From an uncultured Chloroflexia bacterium (GTDB lineage Bacteria; Chloroflexota; Anaerolineae; Anaerolineales; Villigracilaceae): DNA of 64,000 nt. The stretch is taken from assembly GCA_963753985.1 (NCBI GenBank), contig CAVWED010000008.1, positions 82,545 to 146,544 of the forward strand. The letters run 5' to 3'. Below are positions 11,488 to 45,679 of the stretch, piece after piece; within the stretch, counting starts at the first letter, position 1, and every line of letters begins with the position of its first letter. The notes beneath the pieces are model-generated. The model was not told where the DNA came from. It saw only the letters and a list, made by a program, of their open reading frames with translations, and did not search any database. Made by a program: the position numbers and the translations under genes.

Positions 11488-11569
11488 ATATAGCGTGATC
11501 GAGTAGGGAGCGGCGGCTAGCCACTCCCTCTCACACCACCGTACATGCGGGGCCGCATACGGCGGTTCA

Positions 11570-12160
11570 TCAAGCAGAACGCAGTTCGTGATACCGTTCT
11601 TTGATGCTCTTCAGCCCTGAGTTATGCCAATAGGTATTGCTCAGGGCTTGATTTATCACAGGTGCGGCAGACATTCGCCAAGGACTTGTGCCTTTGGCTC
11701 CTTCTTGTGCCCATTGTTTTGGGACGCCCAGCTTCACTAATTCTCGATAGCGGGTTGTACTTCGTTTCCAGCGTTTCCAAATCAGTTGCCTCAATCGTCG
11801 TCGTATCCAACTGTCCAGCTCCTCAAATAGGCTCGGTGTGTCAGCCAGCCGGTAATATCCGATCCAACCGATGATATAACGGTTGATCTCTTCCAGGATC
11901 TGTTCCAGTGTGCCGCTCCGAGTGCGCTTGGTCAGGTTGCGTAGCTTTTCTATAAAGCGTTCCTTCGTTCGGTTCGCAATTCGGATTAGCACCATCCCTT
12001 TGCGCCTGAAGAAACTGAACCCAAGTATTTTCACCTTCCCCACTTTCTCAACCTTACTTTTCTTGGGATTGACTTTCAACTTCAGCTTCTTTTCCAGAAA
12101 CCCTTTCACGCTTTCCATTACTCGTTCACCCGCTCGCTGCGTTTTGACATAAATGTTGCG
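11570..12160 (-). CDS. group II intron A reverse transcriptase/maturase, C-terminal part (downstream of nested intron)
   Basis: (C)NIYVKTQRAGERVMESVKGFLEKKLKLKVN...YIIGWIGYYRLADT is the post-YADD finger/thumb (maturase X) region. Confidence 0.75.
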   Translation of the reverse strand, partial: RNIYVKTQRAGERVMESVKGFLEKKLKLKVNPKKSKVEKVGKVKILGFSFFRRKGMVLIRIANRTKERFIEKLRNLTKRTRSGTLEQILEEINRYIIGWIGYYRLADTPSLFEELDSWIRRRLRQLIWKRWKRSTTRYRELVKLGVPKQWAQEGAKGTSPWRMSAAPVINQALSNTYWHNSGLKSIKERYHELRSA

Positions 12161-14026
12161 GTGAGTGGCCCGAGGGAGTTTCACCCTCGGGCTCTCTCAG
12201 AACCGGACGTGAACCTCTCAGCTCATCCGGCTCCCGTTATCCAGCCGCAGGCAGTATGCCCATCTGCCAATGAACAAACAATTCGGGTAAATTCTTGGCC
12301 AGTCTCCCTATCCAATGAATTGCTCTGATTTTGTGCCGTGCTAACTTCTTGTATTTCCGCCGTGCCCAGAGAATCAGCGCATCGTTGATATGGCGTAACA
12401 CTGGATAGAGTTGCGATTTGTAGAAGCGGCCGTAATAATTGACCCAGCCTCTGATGATTGTATTAAACATCCTCGAAAGTTCATCGATCTCTTTGTCTGA
12501 TTTCAGTTGCAGGCGCCAACTTCGGATGGTTTGTCTCATGGCTTTGCACGCTTGATTGCTTACCGCTGGTGTAAAATTGATGAAATACTTTCCCCAGCGA
12601 TTCTTTGACCTCCTGGGCCGAAAGGTATAGCCCAGAAAGTCAAATGCCGTTACCGGGTAGTCCCCTTTTCGATCATCATCCTTGCAGTACACAATCCAGG
12701 TTTTCTCCGGGTGCATTTCTAATCCACACTGCTTCAACCGTTCTTCCAGCTTGATCCGTAAGGCTTCAGCTTCCGCTTTCGTTCGACAATGGATCACTGC
12801 ATCATCCGCATACCTTGCCCACGGATTGCGTACATTCTCTCTGCTCATCCATTGGTCAAACGCATAATGCATGAATAGATTCGCCAAGATCGGACTGATT
12901 ACCCCGCCTTGGGGTGTCCCAGCCGTTCGTTCAATCCTGGTTCCATCCTGCATCTGAAACGGCGCTTTCAGCCACCTTTCAATATAGAGTATCTCCCATG
13001 GACTGTTTGTATGTTTCCGCACCGCTTTCATTAACAGTTCATGGTCGATCCGGTCAAACAGTTTCTTGATATCAAATACCAGCACCCAGTCATAACGCCA
13101 GCATCTCTCACGCGTTTTTCCCACCGCTTCAATAGCTGACTTCCCTGGTCTGTATCCATAGGAGTCTGCCTGAAAGTAGGGTTCCACCTTCGGCTCAAAG
13201 TGCAGCTTGACCGTCATTTGCGCTACACGATCGGCTACGGTCGGTATCCCCAGGATTCTCGTCCCTCCGCTTTTCTTGGGTATTTCCACTGCCTTAACCG
13301 GCGGGGGAAAGTAACTCCCGGAAGACATCCGATTCCAAATCTTATACAGGTTGCCTTTGAGATCCTCTTCAAACTTTTCGATCGTTTCTTCATCAACCCC
13401 GGCTGCCCCTTTATTCGCTTTGACTCGCTTGTATGCCTCCCAGACCGTTTGCTTGGGAATATCATACGGCTTCGTTTTGTCCATGGCTCCTCCTACTTTT
13501 CAGTAGTTGACACATCTTCAAAACCAGATCACTCAACCTCTTCGCTCCTCCACCTTTTTCGTGGTTTCCTCGCTACTATAGGTTGATCCGCCCCTATACT
13601 CCGCATTTGTACTTTCATCCTGACGGGGTTTCCGCTTGGATTTTTCCATTCGCATCGGAGTCGTAGGTTCCCACGTTCCGTACTAAAGCCTGTGTGATGT
13701 TCACGCCGCCTTCATGCCGGTCACCGTCTGGTCAGTAATCAGGTTCCTTCCAGACTTATCCCAAGTCAACAACTCTACCTGGTTTTGATGGCTTCCCTAC
13801 GCTTTCGACACTTTATCAGCGATTCACTTGTGTTCGTCTCCATCACACTTACCTGACAGAGTCTTCGCTCTGCCTTTTCCGTAACGCTCACGACCGTGGC
13901 TTTTGTCCACTGCCGCTTACGGCGGTTTGAAGCCTCCACCTGCATGGCGGCTCCGAGGGGCCCGCCCTCATCTCTCGTACAGTTCGGCTCTGCCTCCTCC
14001 TTTCTCTATGAGTCTTCGTGGCGCAC
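12161..14026 (-). mobile_element. group II intron B nested inside the RT gene of intron A
   Basis: Starts GTGCGCCACGAAG at 14026 immediately after the YADD codons. Domain V GAGCCGGATGAGCTGAGAGGTTCACGTCCGGTTC (12200-12233). Domain VI-like stem, ends ...GGGCCACTCAC(C) at 12161/12160. Confidence 0.75.
12237..13484 (-). CDS. group II intron B reverse transcriptase/maturase (intact, no endonuclease domain)
   Basis: 415 aa. GAAGVDEETIEKF...RILGIPTVADRVAQ...YGYRPGKSA...PQGGVISPILANLFM...YADDAVIHC...RGWVNYYGRFY. Confidence 0.9.
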   Translation of the reverse strand: MDKTKPYDIPKQTVWEAYKRVKANKGAAGVDEETIEKFEEDLKGNLYKIWNRMSSGSYFPPPVKAVEIPKKSGGTRILGIPTVADRVAQMTVKLHFEPKVEPYFQADSYGYRPGKSAIEAVGKTRERCWRYDWVLVFDIKKLFDRIDHELLMKAVRKHTNSPWEILYIERWLKAPFQMQDGTRIERTAGTPQGGVISPILANLFMHYAFDQWMSRENVRNPWARYADDAVIHCRTKAEAEALRIKLEERLKQCGLEMHPEKTWIVYCKDDDRKGDYPVTAFDFLGYTFRPRRSKNRWGKYFINFTPAVSNQACKAMRQTIRSWRLQLKSDKEIDELSRMFNTIIRGWVNYYGRFYKSQLYPVLRHINDALILWARRKYKKLARHKIRAIHWIGRLAKNLPELFVHWQMGILPAAG

Positions 14027-14723
14027 AGTCATCGGCATAGCGCACAAACTTGTGCCCGCGCTTTTCCAGTTCTTTATCTAGATCGTCCAGCATGATATTG
14101 GAAAGTAACGGCGAGAGTGGGCCACCTTGCGGCACGCCTTCTTCTGCATCCATTACTACTCCATTTATCATCACTCCCGATTCCAGATAGGCTCGGATCA
14201 GCTTGAGCACTCGTTTGTCTTTCACCACCCGTGCCACGCGGGCCATCAGCATATCGTGGTTCACTCGATCAAAGTATTTCTCCAGATCGATATCCACACA
14301 CCATTCGTATCCTTCTTGCACATACGTTTGGGCTTGCCTCACAGCTCCATGCGCACTGCGGCCGGGTCGGAACCCGTAACTGTGTTCCGAAAAGAGCGGT
14401 TCGAATAACGAAACCAACACCTGCGATATCGCTTGTTGGAGAAAGCGATCTAGTACATTCGGTATCCCTAACTGCCTGACCCCGCCATCGGGTTTGGCAA
14501 TCTCAACCCGTCTGACTGGGTTCGGCCGATAGACCCCGCTTTCGAGAGCTGCCCTGGTCTCCAACCAATGTTCCTTCAGGTATGGACGAAGTTCTTTCGC
14601 CATCATCCCATCGATGCCTGGCGCCCCGCCGTTGCTCTCTACTCGCTTCATCGCTATGAGCAAGTTCTGTCTTTCCCAAATCTTTTCCCATAGCCCTGCG
14701 TCGGATGTTCGCTCGTCTCGCAT
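14027..14723 (-). CDS. group II intron A reverse transcriptase, N-terminal part (ends at YADD)
   Basis: MRDERTSDAGLWEKIWERQNLLIAMKRVESNGGAPGIDGM...RQLGIPNVLDRFLQQA...YGFRPGRSAH...PQGGPLSPLLSNIML...FVRYADD, then runs into intron B. Confidence 0.8.
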
Positions 14724-15278
14724 TGTGGACGGCTCGGCCCTCGGTTCCAATCCCGTCGGCTTCACCGACTTCGCTGGCTCCGCAGTATCCCTATCCGGGA
14801 GAGGCTGCCTTCTGTGTTCATCCTGCGAAGTGACTGCTCCTTTCAGTCGCAAGCTGCTCAAGTTACTACTCCGCTTTGATGTTCGGCCCTTCCCACCCGA
14901 TGGCGGTGGTACTTCGGCCTCGGCTGATTGGTATCCTGTGTTCTCTCAGGACCCCTGCCAATTCAGCCTGATTTCTCAATCAGGGTTCCCAGTTTTCCGG
15001 TCTAATGGCAGGTCTCCCCAGATAAGAACGTTGACTTTCTCTGCATCCCTGTCCCATTTACTGCTTCGGCCTTTGACTGCATCGGGCTTCGTTGTCGTTT
15101 GCCAACTCGCCCGGCCTCACAGCCTCTTATAGGTTTCTTGTTCATCAGGTCGCAGATTTGCCTCCGGCTTCCTCCAGACCCCACCTCACAGTGACGCCCT
15201 TGCCTTCAGCTAACAGTTGGCGCAATCAGCCTCTGTCAGAGTCTTTCACTCCTTAGTCAACACCCATGCTGGGCGTAC

Positions 15279-30381: not shown

Positions 30382-32013
30382 TTACCGTCGTACTACGGGC
30401 ACAACAGGTGCTTGAGGTTGATGAGCAAAGGCTAATGCAAGCGGTGGCGGTGCAGTGCCCACTCGCTGCGAAGTGACTGCTCCTTTCAGTCGAAGCTGGA
30501 CAAGATAATCCAAGATCGGAATGGAATGTTGATGGCAGGTTACCAACACACTCGACAAGATCGCATGGGTCTCCGCTCCCGGCTTAGTGCGGTTACATCC
30601 ATTGGTTTTCCGAGTAATCACCGCCGGTCGGATCATGGTTCTGCGGTACGAAACCACCTTGCGTTCCACTTGGTTGTTGGTGGCATCCGAGCCGTCCATG
30701 TACAGGAAGCGCAACAGGTGAGGACGGTGCTTCCTCAAACGCTTGGCAAAGCGGGCATTGTCAGGATCGGTAAAGTGACGTCGATCGGCAATCAAAGCAT
30801 CAAGGCGAGTTTCCAAACTTCGGGCTCGATTGGCAAAGGTGAAAGGATCCAAGTGTGGTTTCTCGGCCTTCAAGTGCAAGGCGTCTTGCAACAAGGCGGT
30901 CATCTGCCGCGCAAACTCCAGCGCTCGACCTGTTTTGCTCTCACGCATGTCTTTCAAGTCTGTCAGCAAATGACCGATACATTTCTGTTTCAGCCAGTCT
31001 TTCAAACGCCGATCGTCATAAGCCAGGAAACCATCACTAGCCAAGATCCCTTTGAACTTCTCACCCAGAATATCGATCACGACGTCGCTCGAGCGGTTGG
31101 CGCGAATATCGTAAACCGTAATCTCGTGATCGGTAAAGACCCAACGCCCTGCGCCCTTCCAGGGGAGCCAGGCCGACAGCGTTCCAATTCTCTAACCCGT
31201 TTCATCTGCGTGCACCACACTGCATTGGCGAATCAACTCAATCAATCGTTCATATATCGGTCGGGCTGTGCGGGCCAGTTTTTGATCTGCGCGACACCAA
31301 CCACTACGACAAACCTGCAAGCCGAAACTATCGTTCAAGACTTCACTCACTGCCTGCACTGTGCTCTTCAGTGTGCCGTACGAGACACCCAAGCGATGCT
31401 TCAGATCAGTGGCCAAAGCCTTGGCGCGCGGGCCGACCACCACCGCTCCTGCAGTTCCGGTCGCCTCCGAGATCTGATCCGGATGCCACGATCGCACTCG
31501 TTTCTGGCAATGGCTGCAGTAGCCGCTGTAGGTCAGAAAACGCGTGACCACCGGCTGCACTTTTGGAAGATCGATCTCAAATTGCTCATGGCGATGCCTC
31601 TGGCGCAATTTGCCGCCGCAGTCCGGGCAACATGGCAATTCGGCTACCTTCGTCTCGCTCACTTCCTTCAGTCTCGGTTTGGCTCGCTATACAAAACGGC
31701 CTTTCCCAGCTTTGCGCCCCGGCCGCTTGGGAAAGTGGTTGGTACTTTGACCATGCTCTACCCAGTGCCCTCGAGCAAACGGTGCCGCTTGCCGCTTCCC
31801 GGCCCGCTTCAATTCTTCCACCTCAGATTGCAAAAGTTCCACCTGCTTTTGCAGTCTCTCGTTCTGTTTTCGCAACTGCTCATTCTCCCCTTGCAGCCTC
31901 TCATTGCTCGCCAACACCTGCCCCAGTTGTTGTTCCAGTTTTGTGATCCGTTGTTCGTTGGCATCCGACAACGTTTGTTTATTACTTCTTTGAACCATGC
32001 GACCAGTGTACAA
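30382..32013 (-). pseudogene. IS66-family transposase interrupted by two in-frame TAG codons
   Basis: Leucine-zipper N-terminus, zinc-finger CPDCGG...CSHCQ, HADETG*R, DDE region ...NNQVERK...RKTNGCNRTKPGAE. TAG at 31687-31689 and 31192-31194, all pieces in one frame. Confidence 0.8.
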
Positions 32014-39448: not shown

Positions 39449-40978
39449 CGACAACGGATCGGGTAGGATACAAATGTCGGTAAGAAGCGCCAACGGATCG
39501 TGCACAGGAATGGCGGCGGCAACCGCCAGAATTGGCGCGATTAATTGACGGTTACTTGATCAAGAATTTGTAGGGCCAGCGTTTGAAAATGCGACCTTTG
39601 AGGTAGATGGTCAGATAGGCGTGGGCCGTATCCAAGACTGCTTTAACGTATTGTCCTTTGAGCCGTTTGCCGATCCAGAAGGTTTGGCTGAGGAAGTAAA
39701 CGTTGCCGTGTCGGGTGACCATGCGAATAAAGGTGACTCGGCCCGCGGCGATGGGCAGCAACTCGGTTGGAACGATAAACGGTGCGGGGAGTAGCTGCAA
39801 TTTGAGTCGTCTGCGAAATTGATTGGGGGTCAGGCCGCCGAGGCGCCGATGAACATGTTGAGTGGTGACCACCTCTTGCAATCGTTGCAATTCGCGCTTC
39901 AACTGAGCAGGCCGAGAATATCGTCGTTGGAGCAAATGCACCTGAAACCAGCCGTTGAAATTCTCAACCGCCCCATTGTACTGAGGCCGGTGGGGCGGAA
40001 TGAAGATGGGTTCGATGCCAAAGCGCAAACAAAGGCGAATGACCCGCGAGAGATAGCGGGCGGCGGGTCCCCAGCCCACGAGTTCGCGTCCATTGTCGAA
40101 TTGAACTTGGGTGGGCCGACCCAGGTTCTTCCAACATTCGCCCAGGAACTGCAGAATGTGGTCCATTTTGCGGGAACGGCTCAATCGCAGGCAAACGGCA
40201 CCGTCGAAGACATCTTTGCGAAAAGACTACTCCTTTCAGTCGCAAACCAGGATGTAATAGCGTTGATGCTTGCCTTTGAGGTAGAGGGGGCCCACGGAAT
40301 CGACGTGATGGAGCTCATTCGAGGTGTGGGCAGTGGGTGCCGAGTAAGTGGTGGCAGATACCCAACGAGCTAGCCGAACGCGCGGTAAGGTGATCCCCTG
40401 CCGTTGCAGGACGCGTTCAATCGTCCGCTCGCTGGGTAAAGGCTGGATGTGCAAGGCTTGCAGTTCGGCTAGAATAGCAGAAGCCCCGATGAGGTTGTAT
40501 CGTGCCCCGGGATGCAGACGCGCCTCTAGTCGCCGACGGACGGTTAAGATAGTGCGTTCCAACTCGGGAGGCATCCGGCGAGCCACTTGGTGTGCCGCAT
40601 GGGTCATGTCGAACAACCCATCGGGGCCAAATTCCAGATAACGATTCCACCATTTGTGGAACCAGCGGCGCGAACGGTGCAAAGTACTACATAGTTGCGG
40701 AATAGATTCTCCCGCCAGCCGCAGTTCGATGGCGCGGTGGCGGTCGGAAAATTCGTCGTTCAAGGTGGTTCTGTTCTTTTGAACCATAGAAATCTCCAGT
40801 AGAATGAATCTGACGGTTGCCGTTGGAGGTCACTTTATTGCAAAACTAAGCTGAAAATATGCGAAACCCCCGTTCAATGTCAGTTCTCACCGCCATCTCC
40901 GTGCACGATCCGTTGGCGGTTTGTACGGCGTCAATGTGCATGATCAGTTGTCGCTAAACTGTGCACGATCCGTTGTCG
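39449..40978 (-). mobile_element. IS with rve-type (IS481/IS3-superfamily-like) transposase and reiterated 18-nt subterminal repeats
   Basis: GTGCACGATCCGTTG(G/T)CG-like repeat three times at the right end (40901, 40936, 40961) and twice inverted at the left end (39449, 39489). Confidence 0.65.
39552..40787 (-). pseudogene. rve-domain DDE transposase interrupted by a 24-nt stop-containing insertion
   Basis: HTH N-terminus, HHVDSVGPLYLKGKHQRYYILVC-[D*KE*SFR]-KDVFDGAVCLRLS...VQFDNGRELVG...HRPQYNGAVENFN. A single frame throughout. Confidence 0.75.
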
Positions 40979-44258: not shown

Positions 44259-45679
44259 GTCAGCCAAGGGTAGAGCGGCATAGAATGGCTTCAAAGAATC
44301 CCAAGAGTGGCTTAGCCAAGCGGCTCTGGCTTTAGCGGTTGCGATGACACCGGGCAGGGTCCAACGTGCGCCGGAACGTTTGAGACGCACTGCGGCAATT
44401 TGTTTGCAAGCGCTTTCGATGGTACCACTGTCAATCAGGTAACCGCATTATCGAAAGCGTGCATAGTCCATACGTTTCTCATTATGATCATAATAGGTGA
44501 CTGCTTTTTCGATGAAGGGCCGCGCAGAAACATGGGATAGCAAACTACGACAGGATTGGATGACATCCTGAATGCGTCCTTTCCAAAGTTCGGTGCGAGC
44601 TTGGTTTAGCCATTCGTGAGCTTGCGGAGTGTTGGCTCCGAAGGCGGCTTCCGCAATGGCGGTGAGATATTCGCTGGCGTGAAACCAATGGTAGGAAGCG
44701 CACCTACCACTTTCCACGATCTGAACCGCATTCGGAAAATACTTTTGCGCCAGATTCCAAATCCACGCGGCACCGTCCCCCAGAAAGACGATTTCTTCGT
44801 AGGCGTCCACTTGATGGTGGATGCCAGTGGCCCACAGCAGTTTTCCAAATTGTTCGGCTTCCTGGATGTCGCAATAGTATTTCATATTTCTGGCTTGCAG
44901 GTGGCGTTGCTCTCCGATGCGCGCCCCGTGGTGGTTCGGTATCGCAGAACCATGATGATTTTGGGCTCGAGAAGGGTGAATCGCCTCCACTTCATACCAA
45001 CAGAGGGTCTTCGACTGAAAGTCGCAGTCATTTCGCAGCTCCTGCCATTCCCCGTGCAAAGGAACATGTACGCCATCCAGCGAAGCGTAAACCCGCCCCG
45101 CACGCTTTCCCAAACTCTGCTCCCGTACCTCCAAGCGTTTCACATCGTCCGCAGTTTGCTTCCATTCTTGTTCTATTTGAGCTTGCGCCTGTCCATAGCC
45201 TTCCGTATGTTTGCGCACGGTATTGTCGCTCACCTAGAATAAGAGCAACCGCTCCGCCAACTGACTGGCCTCTTCAAACGATGTCTCCACGCCCAAGATC
45301 CCCAGCAAACTCGTCAGTCCCGGCGTGCTCTGCCTAGGCACCAATCTCAATCGCTCGTCCAGAGGCGACTGCCCCGATGACAATGCGGACACCAATAATA
45401 TCTCCGCCGGTAAGTCACTTTTCCAAACACACTCCACACCATCCCTTCTCGCTTTCCCCACGGCTCTGCCTCCTGCCCACACGAACAGGCAATCGGAACA
45501 GGGTATTTTTCTTTCCTCCCTTCAATCACTTTCTGCAGACCGATCCCTGAAGCTTCTTTCGCCAATGCTCTCATCGTTTGTTCAATCTCACCGATCTGCA
45601 CTCTCTCCTCCATTTTCTCTCGCACCTCTTGCGCCATTAATTCTGCTATCTTTGTCTTCATTCCTATGCTAAACTCCAT
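44256..45679 (-). pseudogene. ISKra4-family transposase (one frameshift, in-frame TAG and TAA, possible 24-nt insertion)
   Basis: CSCG...CPHCHRG / SPLDERLRL...ERLLLF*VSDNTVRKHTE...GDGAAWIWNL...QIV[ESGRCASYH]WFHASEYL...YARFR*CGYLIDSGTIESACK... Confidence 0.7.

Follow-up and report, generated by a model that had tools for sequence, protein, structure and literature searches.

The window analysed here is a stretch of 64,000 nucleotides (nt) from an uncultured Chloroflexia bacterium (C8:82545-146544 of the 4.54-Mb, nine-contig genome G000), in which a short sequence is shared by a group II intron, called intron A, and by the transposase gene of an insertion sequence (IS) of the IS66 family. We consider it very likely that the sequence in common is a copy of an insertion module with a mobility of its own, since homologues of both host elements have exact 24-nt empty sites, and a short module of this kind, moving or recombining on its own, is what an earlier note on this DNA had proposed. 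We also regard it as likely that the module, whose family we call A, is non-autonomous, inserts seamlessly and moves by cut and paste.

A search of the window located the identical 24-mer CGACTGAAAGGAGCAGTCACTTCG at positions 14826-14849 and 30469-30492, both on the minus strand, and two further copies with three mismatches at 40219-40242 (minus strand) and 45012-45035 (plus strand). No match to the 24-mer was obtained in 100 dinucleotide-preserving shuffles of the window. The 40-mer that the earlier note had quoted at minus-strand 14862-14823 is there as quoted, and the second copy does exist but at 30504-30466, that is 10 nt away from the 30514-30476 given for it. In the same way the 24 identical nt were placed correctly at 14826-14849 and wrongly at 30479-30502, the correct interval being 30469-30492. 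Between the two focal copies the similarity ends abruptly and is nil beyond about 27 nt (C, the 24-mer and AG); the earlier note had called the two host elements otherwise unrelated. The peptide RLKGAVTS can be read in the local open frame of both copies, but in the intron this reading has no meaning, because the frame there is a stop-to-stop extension upstream of the start codon of the reverse transcriptase (RT) gene (ATG, 14821-14819). The features concerned are the following:

11498 to 15195, minus strand: host element 1, group II intron A, with its RT gene interrupted by a nested intron B (Rfam matches and open reading frames, ORFs)
14825 to 14848, minus strand: family-A module GACTGAAAGGAGCAGTCACTTCGC in domain IV of intron A (exact 24-nt gap in five homologues)
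30382 to 32013, minus strand: host element 2, IS66-family transposase gene, in three ORF pieces of the same frame (ORFs and Pfam)
30468 to 30491, minus strand: family-A module in the IS66 transposase gene, adding RLKGAVTS in frame to the C-terminal tail of the protein at a distance of 37 codons from the stop
40218 to 40241, minus strand: family-A variant GACTGAAAGGAGTAGTCTTTTCGC in the gene of an IS481-like transposase with helix-turn-helix (HTH) and rve domains, read as D*KE*SFR
45013 to 45036, plus strand: family-A2 variant GACTGAAAGTCGCAGTCATTTCGC, contained in a transposase-like ORF (44448-45233, minus strand), a 24-nt indel relative to a paralogue at C2:428xxx

Intron A is matched by the Rfam families D1D4-3, D1D4-1 and D1D4-2 (15195-13851) and by two Intron_gpII domain V/VI models, and the IS66 gene by PF03050 (DDE_Tnp_IS66, on 30385-31080). 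In the intron 3 nt separate the module from the RT start codon that follows it. As both junctions there have the dinucleotide GC, the exact limits of the module can be shifted by as much as 2 nt.

Empty and filled sites

Four further genomes of the genus have homologues of intron A. Five were aligned, with identities of 95, 82, 80, 79 and 79%, and all five lack exactly 24 nt, the empty site reading ...GAGCAGCTTGC/AGGATG, with the junction CTTGC/AGGATG (the slash marks the point of insertion). Exactly 24 nt are lacking also in the IS66 homologues of G021 (85% identical) and of G049 and G004 (about 70%), in which the empty site is CAGCTTC/AGCGAG, and four IS66 copies from peat metagenomes (L051, L055, L058 and L061) carry the 24 nt unchanged. 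The alternative raised in the earlier note, namely that all the homologues carry the segment as ancestral sequence, fails on these alignments, because homologues of both hosts are without exactly these 24 nt.

The same kind of exact 24-nt indel, relative to empty paralogues, was seen in at least six further IS families, and when paralogous repeats are compared, the most frequent indel lengths are 23-24 nt. The copy in the IS481-like gene at 40219, which had been taken for the same module, is indeed a three-mismatch copy of it and forms an eight-codon insert relative to the paralogue C8:150051-151229 (39% identical). A filled site is equal to the empty site plus 24 nt, with unaltered flanks and no target duplication. 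The flanking bases TTNC/AR are already present in the empty sites, so they are features of the target and not a duplication. Judging by these alignments, the module entered intron A and the IS66 tail independently.

Census, target and range of family A

On the whole genome, the consensus GACTGAAAGGAGCAGTCACTTCGC has 39 copies with at most three mismatches, against 0-1 for the reversed control, although these copies are not independent and enrichment figures of this type therefore overstate the significance. In all, the family has about 42 copies, and by clustering of the flanks they fall into 23 independent sites. The module is built of a stem of 5 bp with a loop of 7 nt, followed by 7 nt of tail, the unpaired tail appearing as ACTTCGC in the logo. 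The target logo of the 23 sites reads T (15/23), T (19/23), N and C (22/23) before the module and A (20/23) and R (22/23) after it, with an information content of up to 1.7 bits per position in the upstream TTNC.

Nearly all the copies of family A are inside ORFs, and almost all of the 23 sites belong to transposase genes or other mobile DNA. The hosts recognised with Pfam are transposases of the ISL3, rve, DDE_3, Mutator, ISAZ013, DDE_Tnp_1, IS66 and DUF772 types, together with several transposase HTH domains and one DNA methylase. Judged by the host frame, 19 copies are forward and 20 reverse, so that neither orientation is preferred, and at least five reading frames are used.

Of 24 further genomes of the genus, 7 have family A, none of the 16 other genera sampled from the order has it, and no match was found in viral contigs; among the sampled genomes it is confined to one genus. 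Exact matches elsewhere come only from metagenome-assembled genomes (MAGs) of uncultured Chloroflexia or Anaerolineae. Several MAGs have the family, and so have peat metagenomes sequenced independently with Illumina. Since these assemblies are independent and come from different projects and sequencing technologies, the family is not an assembly artefact.

These data also bear on an alternative in which the shared sequence would be due to chance or ancestral similarity, to a convergent peptide motif, or to an assembly or adapter artefact. The only thing that speaks for it is the short length of the match. It is contradicted by the empty shuffles and the nearly empty reversed controls, by the exact empty sites, by the use of five or more different frames and by the independence of the assemblies, projects and technologies, and we give it practically no credence.

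Gain, loss and spread at the same site

On the trees of the host IS, in which several nodes are weakly supported, the module is distributed in patches. The ISAs1-like family has five module sites. One of its copies (C7:467502) differs by a 24-nt family-F module from three copies that are nearly identical to it (synonymous divergence, dS, of 0.006-0.009), and this insertion event is recent because copies so similar differ by the module. Site 2 of the same family asks for one precise loss inside a clade with 100/100 support or else for four to five parallel gains, while sites 3 and 4 are filled in all those clade members that belong to G000 and in none of their closest relatives from other assemblies. 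An IS66 clade, again with 100/100 support, joins four filled copies and one empty copy. A second module of the IS66 gene, of family C2, is found only in two non-sister copies of G000 and is missing in every IS66 homologue from other assemblies, a distribution that points to same-site spread within one genome.

From this patchy presence it follows that repeated gain at the same site within a genome, scar-free loss, or both must occur. As read from the sequences compared, the trees favour precise losses, with parallel gains as the other possibility, and precise excision of the module is probable. Moreover, paralogues of one genome that are not sisters can have the same module at an identical site, and, because the same sites recur among paralogues, recombination or homing contributes alongside true transposition.

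It could then be asked if recombination is all there is, so that no transposition takes place and the module spreads by homologous recombination, gene conversion or "homing" through double-strand break repair between related sequences. Two observations speak for it: within one genome, non-sister paralogues have the same variant at a common site while their closest relatives elsewhere are without it, and there are module variants specific to an IS family. It does not account, however, for 23 sites with unrelated flanks in unrelated genes (intron, IS66, IS481-like, ISL3, Mutator, IS630-like, ISAZ013, methylases and others), and the insertion in intron A already looks like a new site without homology to an existing filled site. 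Furthermore, synonymous differences begin 3-9 nt from the module, so the conversion tracts would have to be about as small as the module itself. For these reasons we hold an origin by recombination only to be very improbable; short conversion tracts may account for the same-site spread, but not for insertion into unrelated genes.

Effect of the modules on the host genes

Several insertions fall inside highly conserved catalytic motifs of their hosts. In an IS4-like transposase of the genome G004 (MAG CAVYTW01; L010:5838-6968, plus strand) the module lies between the E and the K of the motif Y(2)R(3)E(6)K, and the protein, which is intact and has at least eight copies, reads …YRRRMWIEEMFGDF[DWKEQSLR]KKHGF…. 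Other insertions are placed after the LDNGYF of a DDE transposase and inside the WYNxxHHHSGIG of an rve transposase.

Other copies introduce stops or frameshifts, and the host frame is nevertheless maintained. The variant GACTGAAAGGAGTAGTCTTTTCGC brings two in-frame stops, TGA and TAG, into the IS481-like gene of the window. The identical two-stop variant is present in a copy on C1, at a dS of 1.6-2.9 (saturated, and in any case above 1.5), and the ratio of nonsynonymous to synonymous divergence (dN/dS) is 0.11-0.13 on both sides of the module. Seven ISAs1-like copies share an in-frame TGA, downstream of which dN/dS is 0.07-0.11 at a dS of about 0.9. In the copies with a frameshifting module, either of family E (23 nt) or of family H (26 nt), the downstream frame is open and has a dN/dS of 0.11-0.26. 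The modules themselves have no mismatches where their flanks differ by 12-27%, and module-bearing copies have recently been duplicated (pairs with a dS of 0.02).

Four diverged rve-type copies are frameshifted by the palindromic family H (C2:475709, C9:219046, C8:337875 and C8:323927). In these four copies both halves are open, with a dN/dS of 0.16-0.26, and the presence of the module is scattered among the closest empty relatives.

Family E (23 nt) causes a frameshift in transposases of two families that are unrelated to each other, and its orientation and phase are the same in the two. In both IS families it creates an in-phase G_GGA_AAA heptamer, at which a -1 slip leads into the downstream frame. 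The loci of this family are C9:25558-25580 and C6:399615-399637 of G000, both on the minus strand, and their paralogues.

One way to read these observations is that the module is a recoding or regulatory cassette, kept by the host IS as a translational attenuator that provides a stop, a stem-loop and a Shine-Dalgarno-like AAGGAG or, in other families, a slippery site. Production of the transposase would then depend on infrequent read-through or frameshifting, comparable to the programmed frameshifting of IS1 and IS3. The identical two-stop module of the IS481-like copies, the seven ISAs1-like copies with the in-frame TGA and their low downstream dN/dS, the heptamer of family E, the absence of mismatches in modules with diverged flanks, and the replacement of TGA by TGG in several frame-0 copies are all in favour of it. 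On the other hand, most copies have no stop, the two orientations are equally frequent, and in the frameshifting modules of family H (26 nt) and family C (23 nt) no slippery site was found. The conservation can also be explained by recent same-site spread (at the ISAs1-like sites 3 and 4, and for C2 of IS66, only in paralogues of G000), and the arrival of the module in unrelated genes is left unexplained. As to read-through, no opal or amber suppressor tRNA was found in G000, the only relevant gene being a tRNA-Sec (C6:1137391) whose use lacks the appropriate context. Precisely, decoding of the stop as selenocysteine was considered and rejected, as the UGA is inside a small stem and is not followed by a hairpin resembling a selenocysteine insertion sequence (SECIS), though tRNA-Sec exists. 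Altogether we judge the cassette improbable. A tRNA-like gene of 85 nt, listed by ARAGORN as "tRNA-??? (tt)" because its anticodon loop is irregular, lies at C8:260023-260107 on the minus strand.

A second way is that the module is removed or bypassed at expression, as a micro-intron or by a translational bypass of the kind seen in T4 gene 60 or in the yeast mitochondrial "byps", so that the protein is made without the eight extra residues. Insertions inside highly conserved catalytic motifs, such as the three listed above, would be easier to understand in this way, and so would the frames that stay open and selected past stops and frameshifts; by sequence reading, a hop from AAG to AAA at site 3 of the ISAs1-like family would restore the native peptide length. 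Consistent pairs of take-off and landing codons are, however, absent from the other cases inspected: in the forward copies in frame 0, the preceding codon is TGC, TTC, TAC, CAC or CCC, against CGC as the last codon. The lack of any orientation bias argues against sequence-specific recognition at the RNA level, and the two insertions seen in host genes are both in the stop-free frame, as expected if they are simply translated. We consider removal or bypass at expression very unlikely.

The host data fit modules that are removable or bypassed, and we advance as a hypothesis that these are phenotypically silent; translation may in certain cases be rescued in part. The weight given to dN/dS as evidence for silent modules was lowered, because the trees show that same-site spread can be recent, and some of the signal may be older than such insertions. 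A further idea, speculative and on balance doubtful, is that transposase genes are fitted by the modules with a reversible "safety catch", with site-specific entry into mobile elements and either scarless exit or skipping at expression. If this were true, a transposase with a stop or a frameshift would be only conditionally off, and the module would be conserved since an IS with a module that cannot be removed is dead. Such modules would be a bacterial counterpart of the internal eliminated sequences of ciliates, acting on genome parasites.

Possible mechanism and search for the enzyme

Seamless insertion 3′ of a short motif, absence of target duplication, dependence on a stem-loop and probable precise loss are together the signature of IS200/IS605 transposition (IS608, ISDra2). 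Because of these four traits we tentatively suggest a "peel and paste" movement, in which the module would travel as a hairpin of single-stranded DNA and an HUH/Y1 transposase like those of IS200/IS605 would act on it in trans. An enzyme of this sort would insert the module 3′ of the short target motif without duplication and would excise it precisely, so that disruptive copies would not permanently kill the host IS.

Elements of the IS200/IS605 group have neither terminal inverted repeats nor target duplications, insert 3′ of TTAC or TTGAT and excise precisely, and the module resembles them in lacking duplications and terminal inverted repeats and in being found 3′ of TTNC. The two differ in size and structure, since these elements and their gene-less derivatives have hairpins at both ends and measure at least about 100 nt, whereas the module has 24 nt and a single 5-bp stem-loop. 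A candidate source of the enzyme exists: both tnpA and tnpB are carried by each of the two IS605 elements of G000 (one tnpA is at C2:122838-123185), and canonical TnpA of the IS200 type is encoded by G000 (two genes), G004, G016 and G019, which are the genomes richest in module copies.

Several observations weigh against this proposal, some of them against the hairpin as the moving unit and others against the enzyme. The family-A hairpin alone has a folding energy of -3.2 kcal/mol with a z of -1.4, which is not significant, and the covariation of the stem positions GACTG/CAGTC, suggested as a check in the earlier note, did not appear, there being no clean stem covariation within family A. Each module has one hairpin, whereas IS200/IS605 elements need one at each end. 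No enzyme is linked to the module; no canonical Y1 TnpA was found in the module-bearing genomes G020, G021, G023 and G007 (some of which are incomplete), and no gene similar to a REP-associated tyrosine transposase (RAYT) is flanked by modules. Finally, a target of 4-5 nt alone cannot explain the extreme bias towards mobile elements or the reuse of identical sites. The bias could come from a targeting of transposition intermediates or from selection. To our knowledge, no transposition machinery is known to act on elements as small as 24 nt, and we know of few descriptions of ultra-small movers and of none that gives the mechanism of their movement.

Two genes were examined as candidate RAYTs. 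In G000, PF01797 matches the two IS605 TnpA genes and host genes that have no HUH motif. These host genes lie at C9:43823-44176 and C7:560427-560786 and code for 164 aa and 570 aa. Each has a terminal Y1_Tnp-like domain with YLQ in place of HUH, and no repeats flank the one at C9:43823. Both are conserved in almost every genome of the genus, with or without modules, and are usually 7-9 kb apart. A RAYT as the mover was rejected, as none was found, and these two conserved Y1-like genes have no HUH motif and their presence is independent of the modules.

A parent element was also sought among the IS ends. The hairpin loop at the left end of IS605 (C2:~123395-121480 and a C7 copy) holds a module-like 24-mer, CACTGAAAGAGCRCAGTAC..., and the right end of an IS607-like element (C1:216667, C7:699517 and C6:1025340) matches family F at 19/24 positions; the matches of 15/21 at the former end and 19/24 at the latter had a shuffle p of 0.00 or less. 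We did not retain these ends as the parent, since they are explained equally well as older insertions of modules into those IS.

Comparison with known short elements

The closest described elements are the small dispersed repeats (SDRs) SDR1-8 of Nostoc punctiforme and relatives, and especially SDR4-6, attributed to Elhai et al. (2008, Genome Res 18:1484; cited in PMC3116915 and PMC3733652). These are reportedly 21-27 nt long, belong to several families, have stem-loop potential, make clean insertions and are nested in each other and in mobile elements. We know of no enzyme or mechanism for them, and none is known to have been proposed since 2008. The modules share with them the 21-26-nt dispersed families, the clean insertions and the nesting (family A in the loop of family C). 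They are set apart by their occurrence in one genus of Chloroflexota instead of in Nostocaceae, and, being hosted by that phylum, they are at best an analogue of the SDRs and not a member. The TTNC/AR target, the overwhelming location in transposase genes, the stops and frameshifts in selected genes, and the same-site recurrence or precise loss are features of the modules that are not known to be described for SDRs.

Repetitive extragenic palindromic (REP) sequences and REPINs are 20-40-nt stem-loops of many families with a conserved unpaired tag at one end, associated with a RAYT (TnpA_REP) (PMC3733652; PMC3116915). Tagged REPs are sometimes found inside ORFs, giving in-frame "REP-decorated" proteins (PMC3733652), and REPs are presumed substrates of an HUH/Y1 enzyme that acts on DNA in single-stranded form (PMC3733652; PMC3116915). 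The module is similar in its short stem-loop with an unpaired tail, its many families and its copies in ORFs. It differs in the tag, which is ACTTCG(C) (AAGT on the other strand) in place of GTAG or CGTC, and in its arrangement: modules are mostly singletons, intragenic in mobile elements, whereas REPs are mostly extragenic and often form inverted doublets. The only inverted pair of modules that we found arose from two separate insertions, and no RAYT gene flanked by module copies was found.

The coding gap of T4 gene 60 is crossed by translational bypass (bioRxiv 10.1101/2022.08.31.505936). The modules resemble bypass elements in being short inserts with a stop and a stem-loop in a selected gene, and differ from them in occurring in both orientations and in that only site 3 of the ISAs1-like family (AAG...AAA) fits a pair of take-off and landing codons. 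The mitochondrial byps are likewise short mobile inserts that carry a stop codon and a stem-loop in an intact, selected gene.

Rickettsia palindromic elements are reportedly selfish DNA 100-150 nt long, inserted in frame in housekeeping genes, where they are tolerated as extra peptide loops (Ogata et al. 2000). The modules are likewise palindromic DNA in frame in protein genes, but they are 21-26 nt long, reside mostly in transposases and are kept also as copies with a stop or a frameshift. Miniature inverted-repeat transposable elements (MITEs) have terminal inverted repeats and a target-site duplication and are 70-300 bp long, so that a 24-nt unit without duplication is not one of them. An origin from CRISPR repeats was discarded because the copies are solitary, although no search for arrays was made.

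The exact empty and filled sites, the TTNC/AR target, the parallel families, the nesting and the selected hosts make up a clean data set on which the mechanism of movement is directly testable. It is also a possibility that other mobile elements are tamed or gated by such modules. In genome annotation, these inserts cause false pseudogene calls and spurious similarity between unrelated mobile elements, as between intron A and IS66.

Other families of modules

The inserted pieces comprise at least nine families of modules of 21, 23, 24 or 26 nt. Their common plan is a stem of 4-7 bp, a loop of 7-8 nt and a short tail that is often ACTT-like. A census of all the families gave 134 copies, against none in the reversed controls, and 75% of these copies are within the 11.2% of the genome that is covered by repeats. 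In family E the stem has a compensatory change between the two IS families (CACCG/CGGTG against CATCG/CGATG). Both focal host elements hold a second module of one of these families:

14928 to 14951, minus strand: family-I 24-nt stem-loop module TCCTGAGAGAACACAGGATACCAA, unrelated to family A, in intron A (exact gap in homologues)
30638 to 30661, minus strand: family-C2 24-nt module CAAGGTGGTTTCGTACCGCAGAAC (minus strand) in the same IS66 gene (comparison with homologues)

The family-I module is in the 5′ structured part of intron A and is exactly missing in three of the five homologues. The family has three genomic copies, the other two being at C1:281807 and C9:134553, and its DNA fold has a z of -2.8. 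Within the window, the consensus of family D has no match at up to three mismatches, 44690-44713 included.

Modules can also be inserted in each other. A 48-nt composite consists of a family-A module nested in the loop of a family-C module and occupies two sites, in both of which it is in frame, as GSAVRLKGAVTSQNHH or GSVVRLKGAVTSQNHS. One site is the N-terminus of a DNA methylase (C4:39625 of G000; L026) and the other is an RlmI-like S-adenosylmethionine (SAM) methyltransferase orthologue (PF10672), which is filled in the peat metagenome (contig L059) and empty in G000 (C4:19320).

Finally, many of the members of family B (21 nt) that lie in single-copy contexts (for example C7:189938, C7:876318, C7:980537 and C2:253102) share the additional flanks GCTCGCAA ... 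TGACAT. With these flanks they look like a larger conserved intergenic motif, perhaps associated with promoters, and not like a bare insert.

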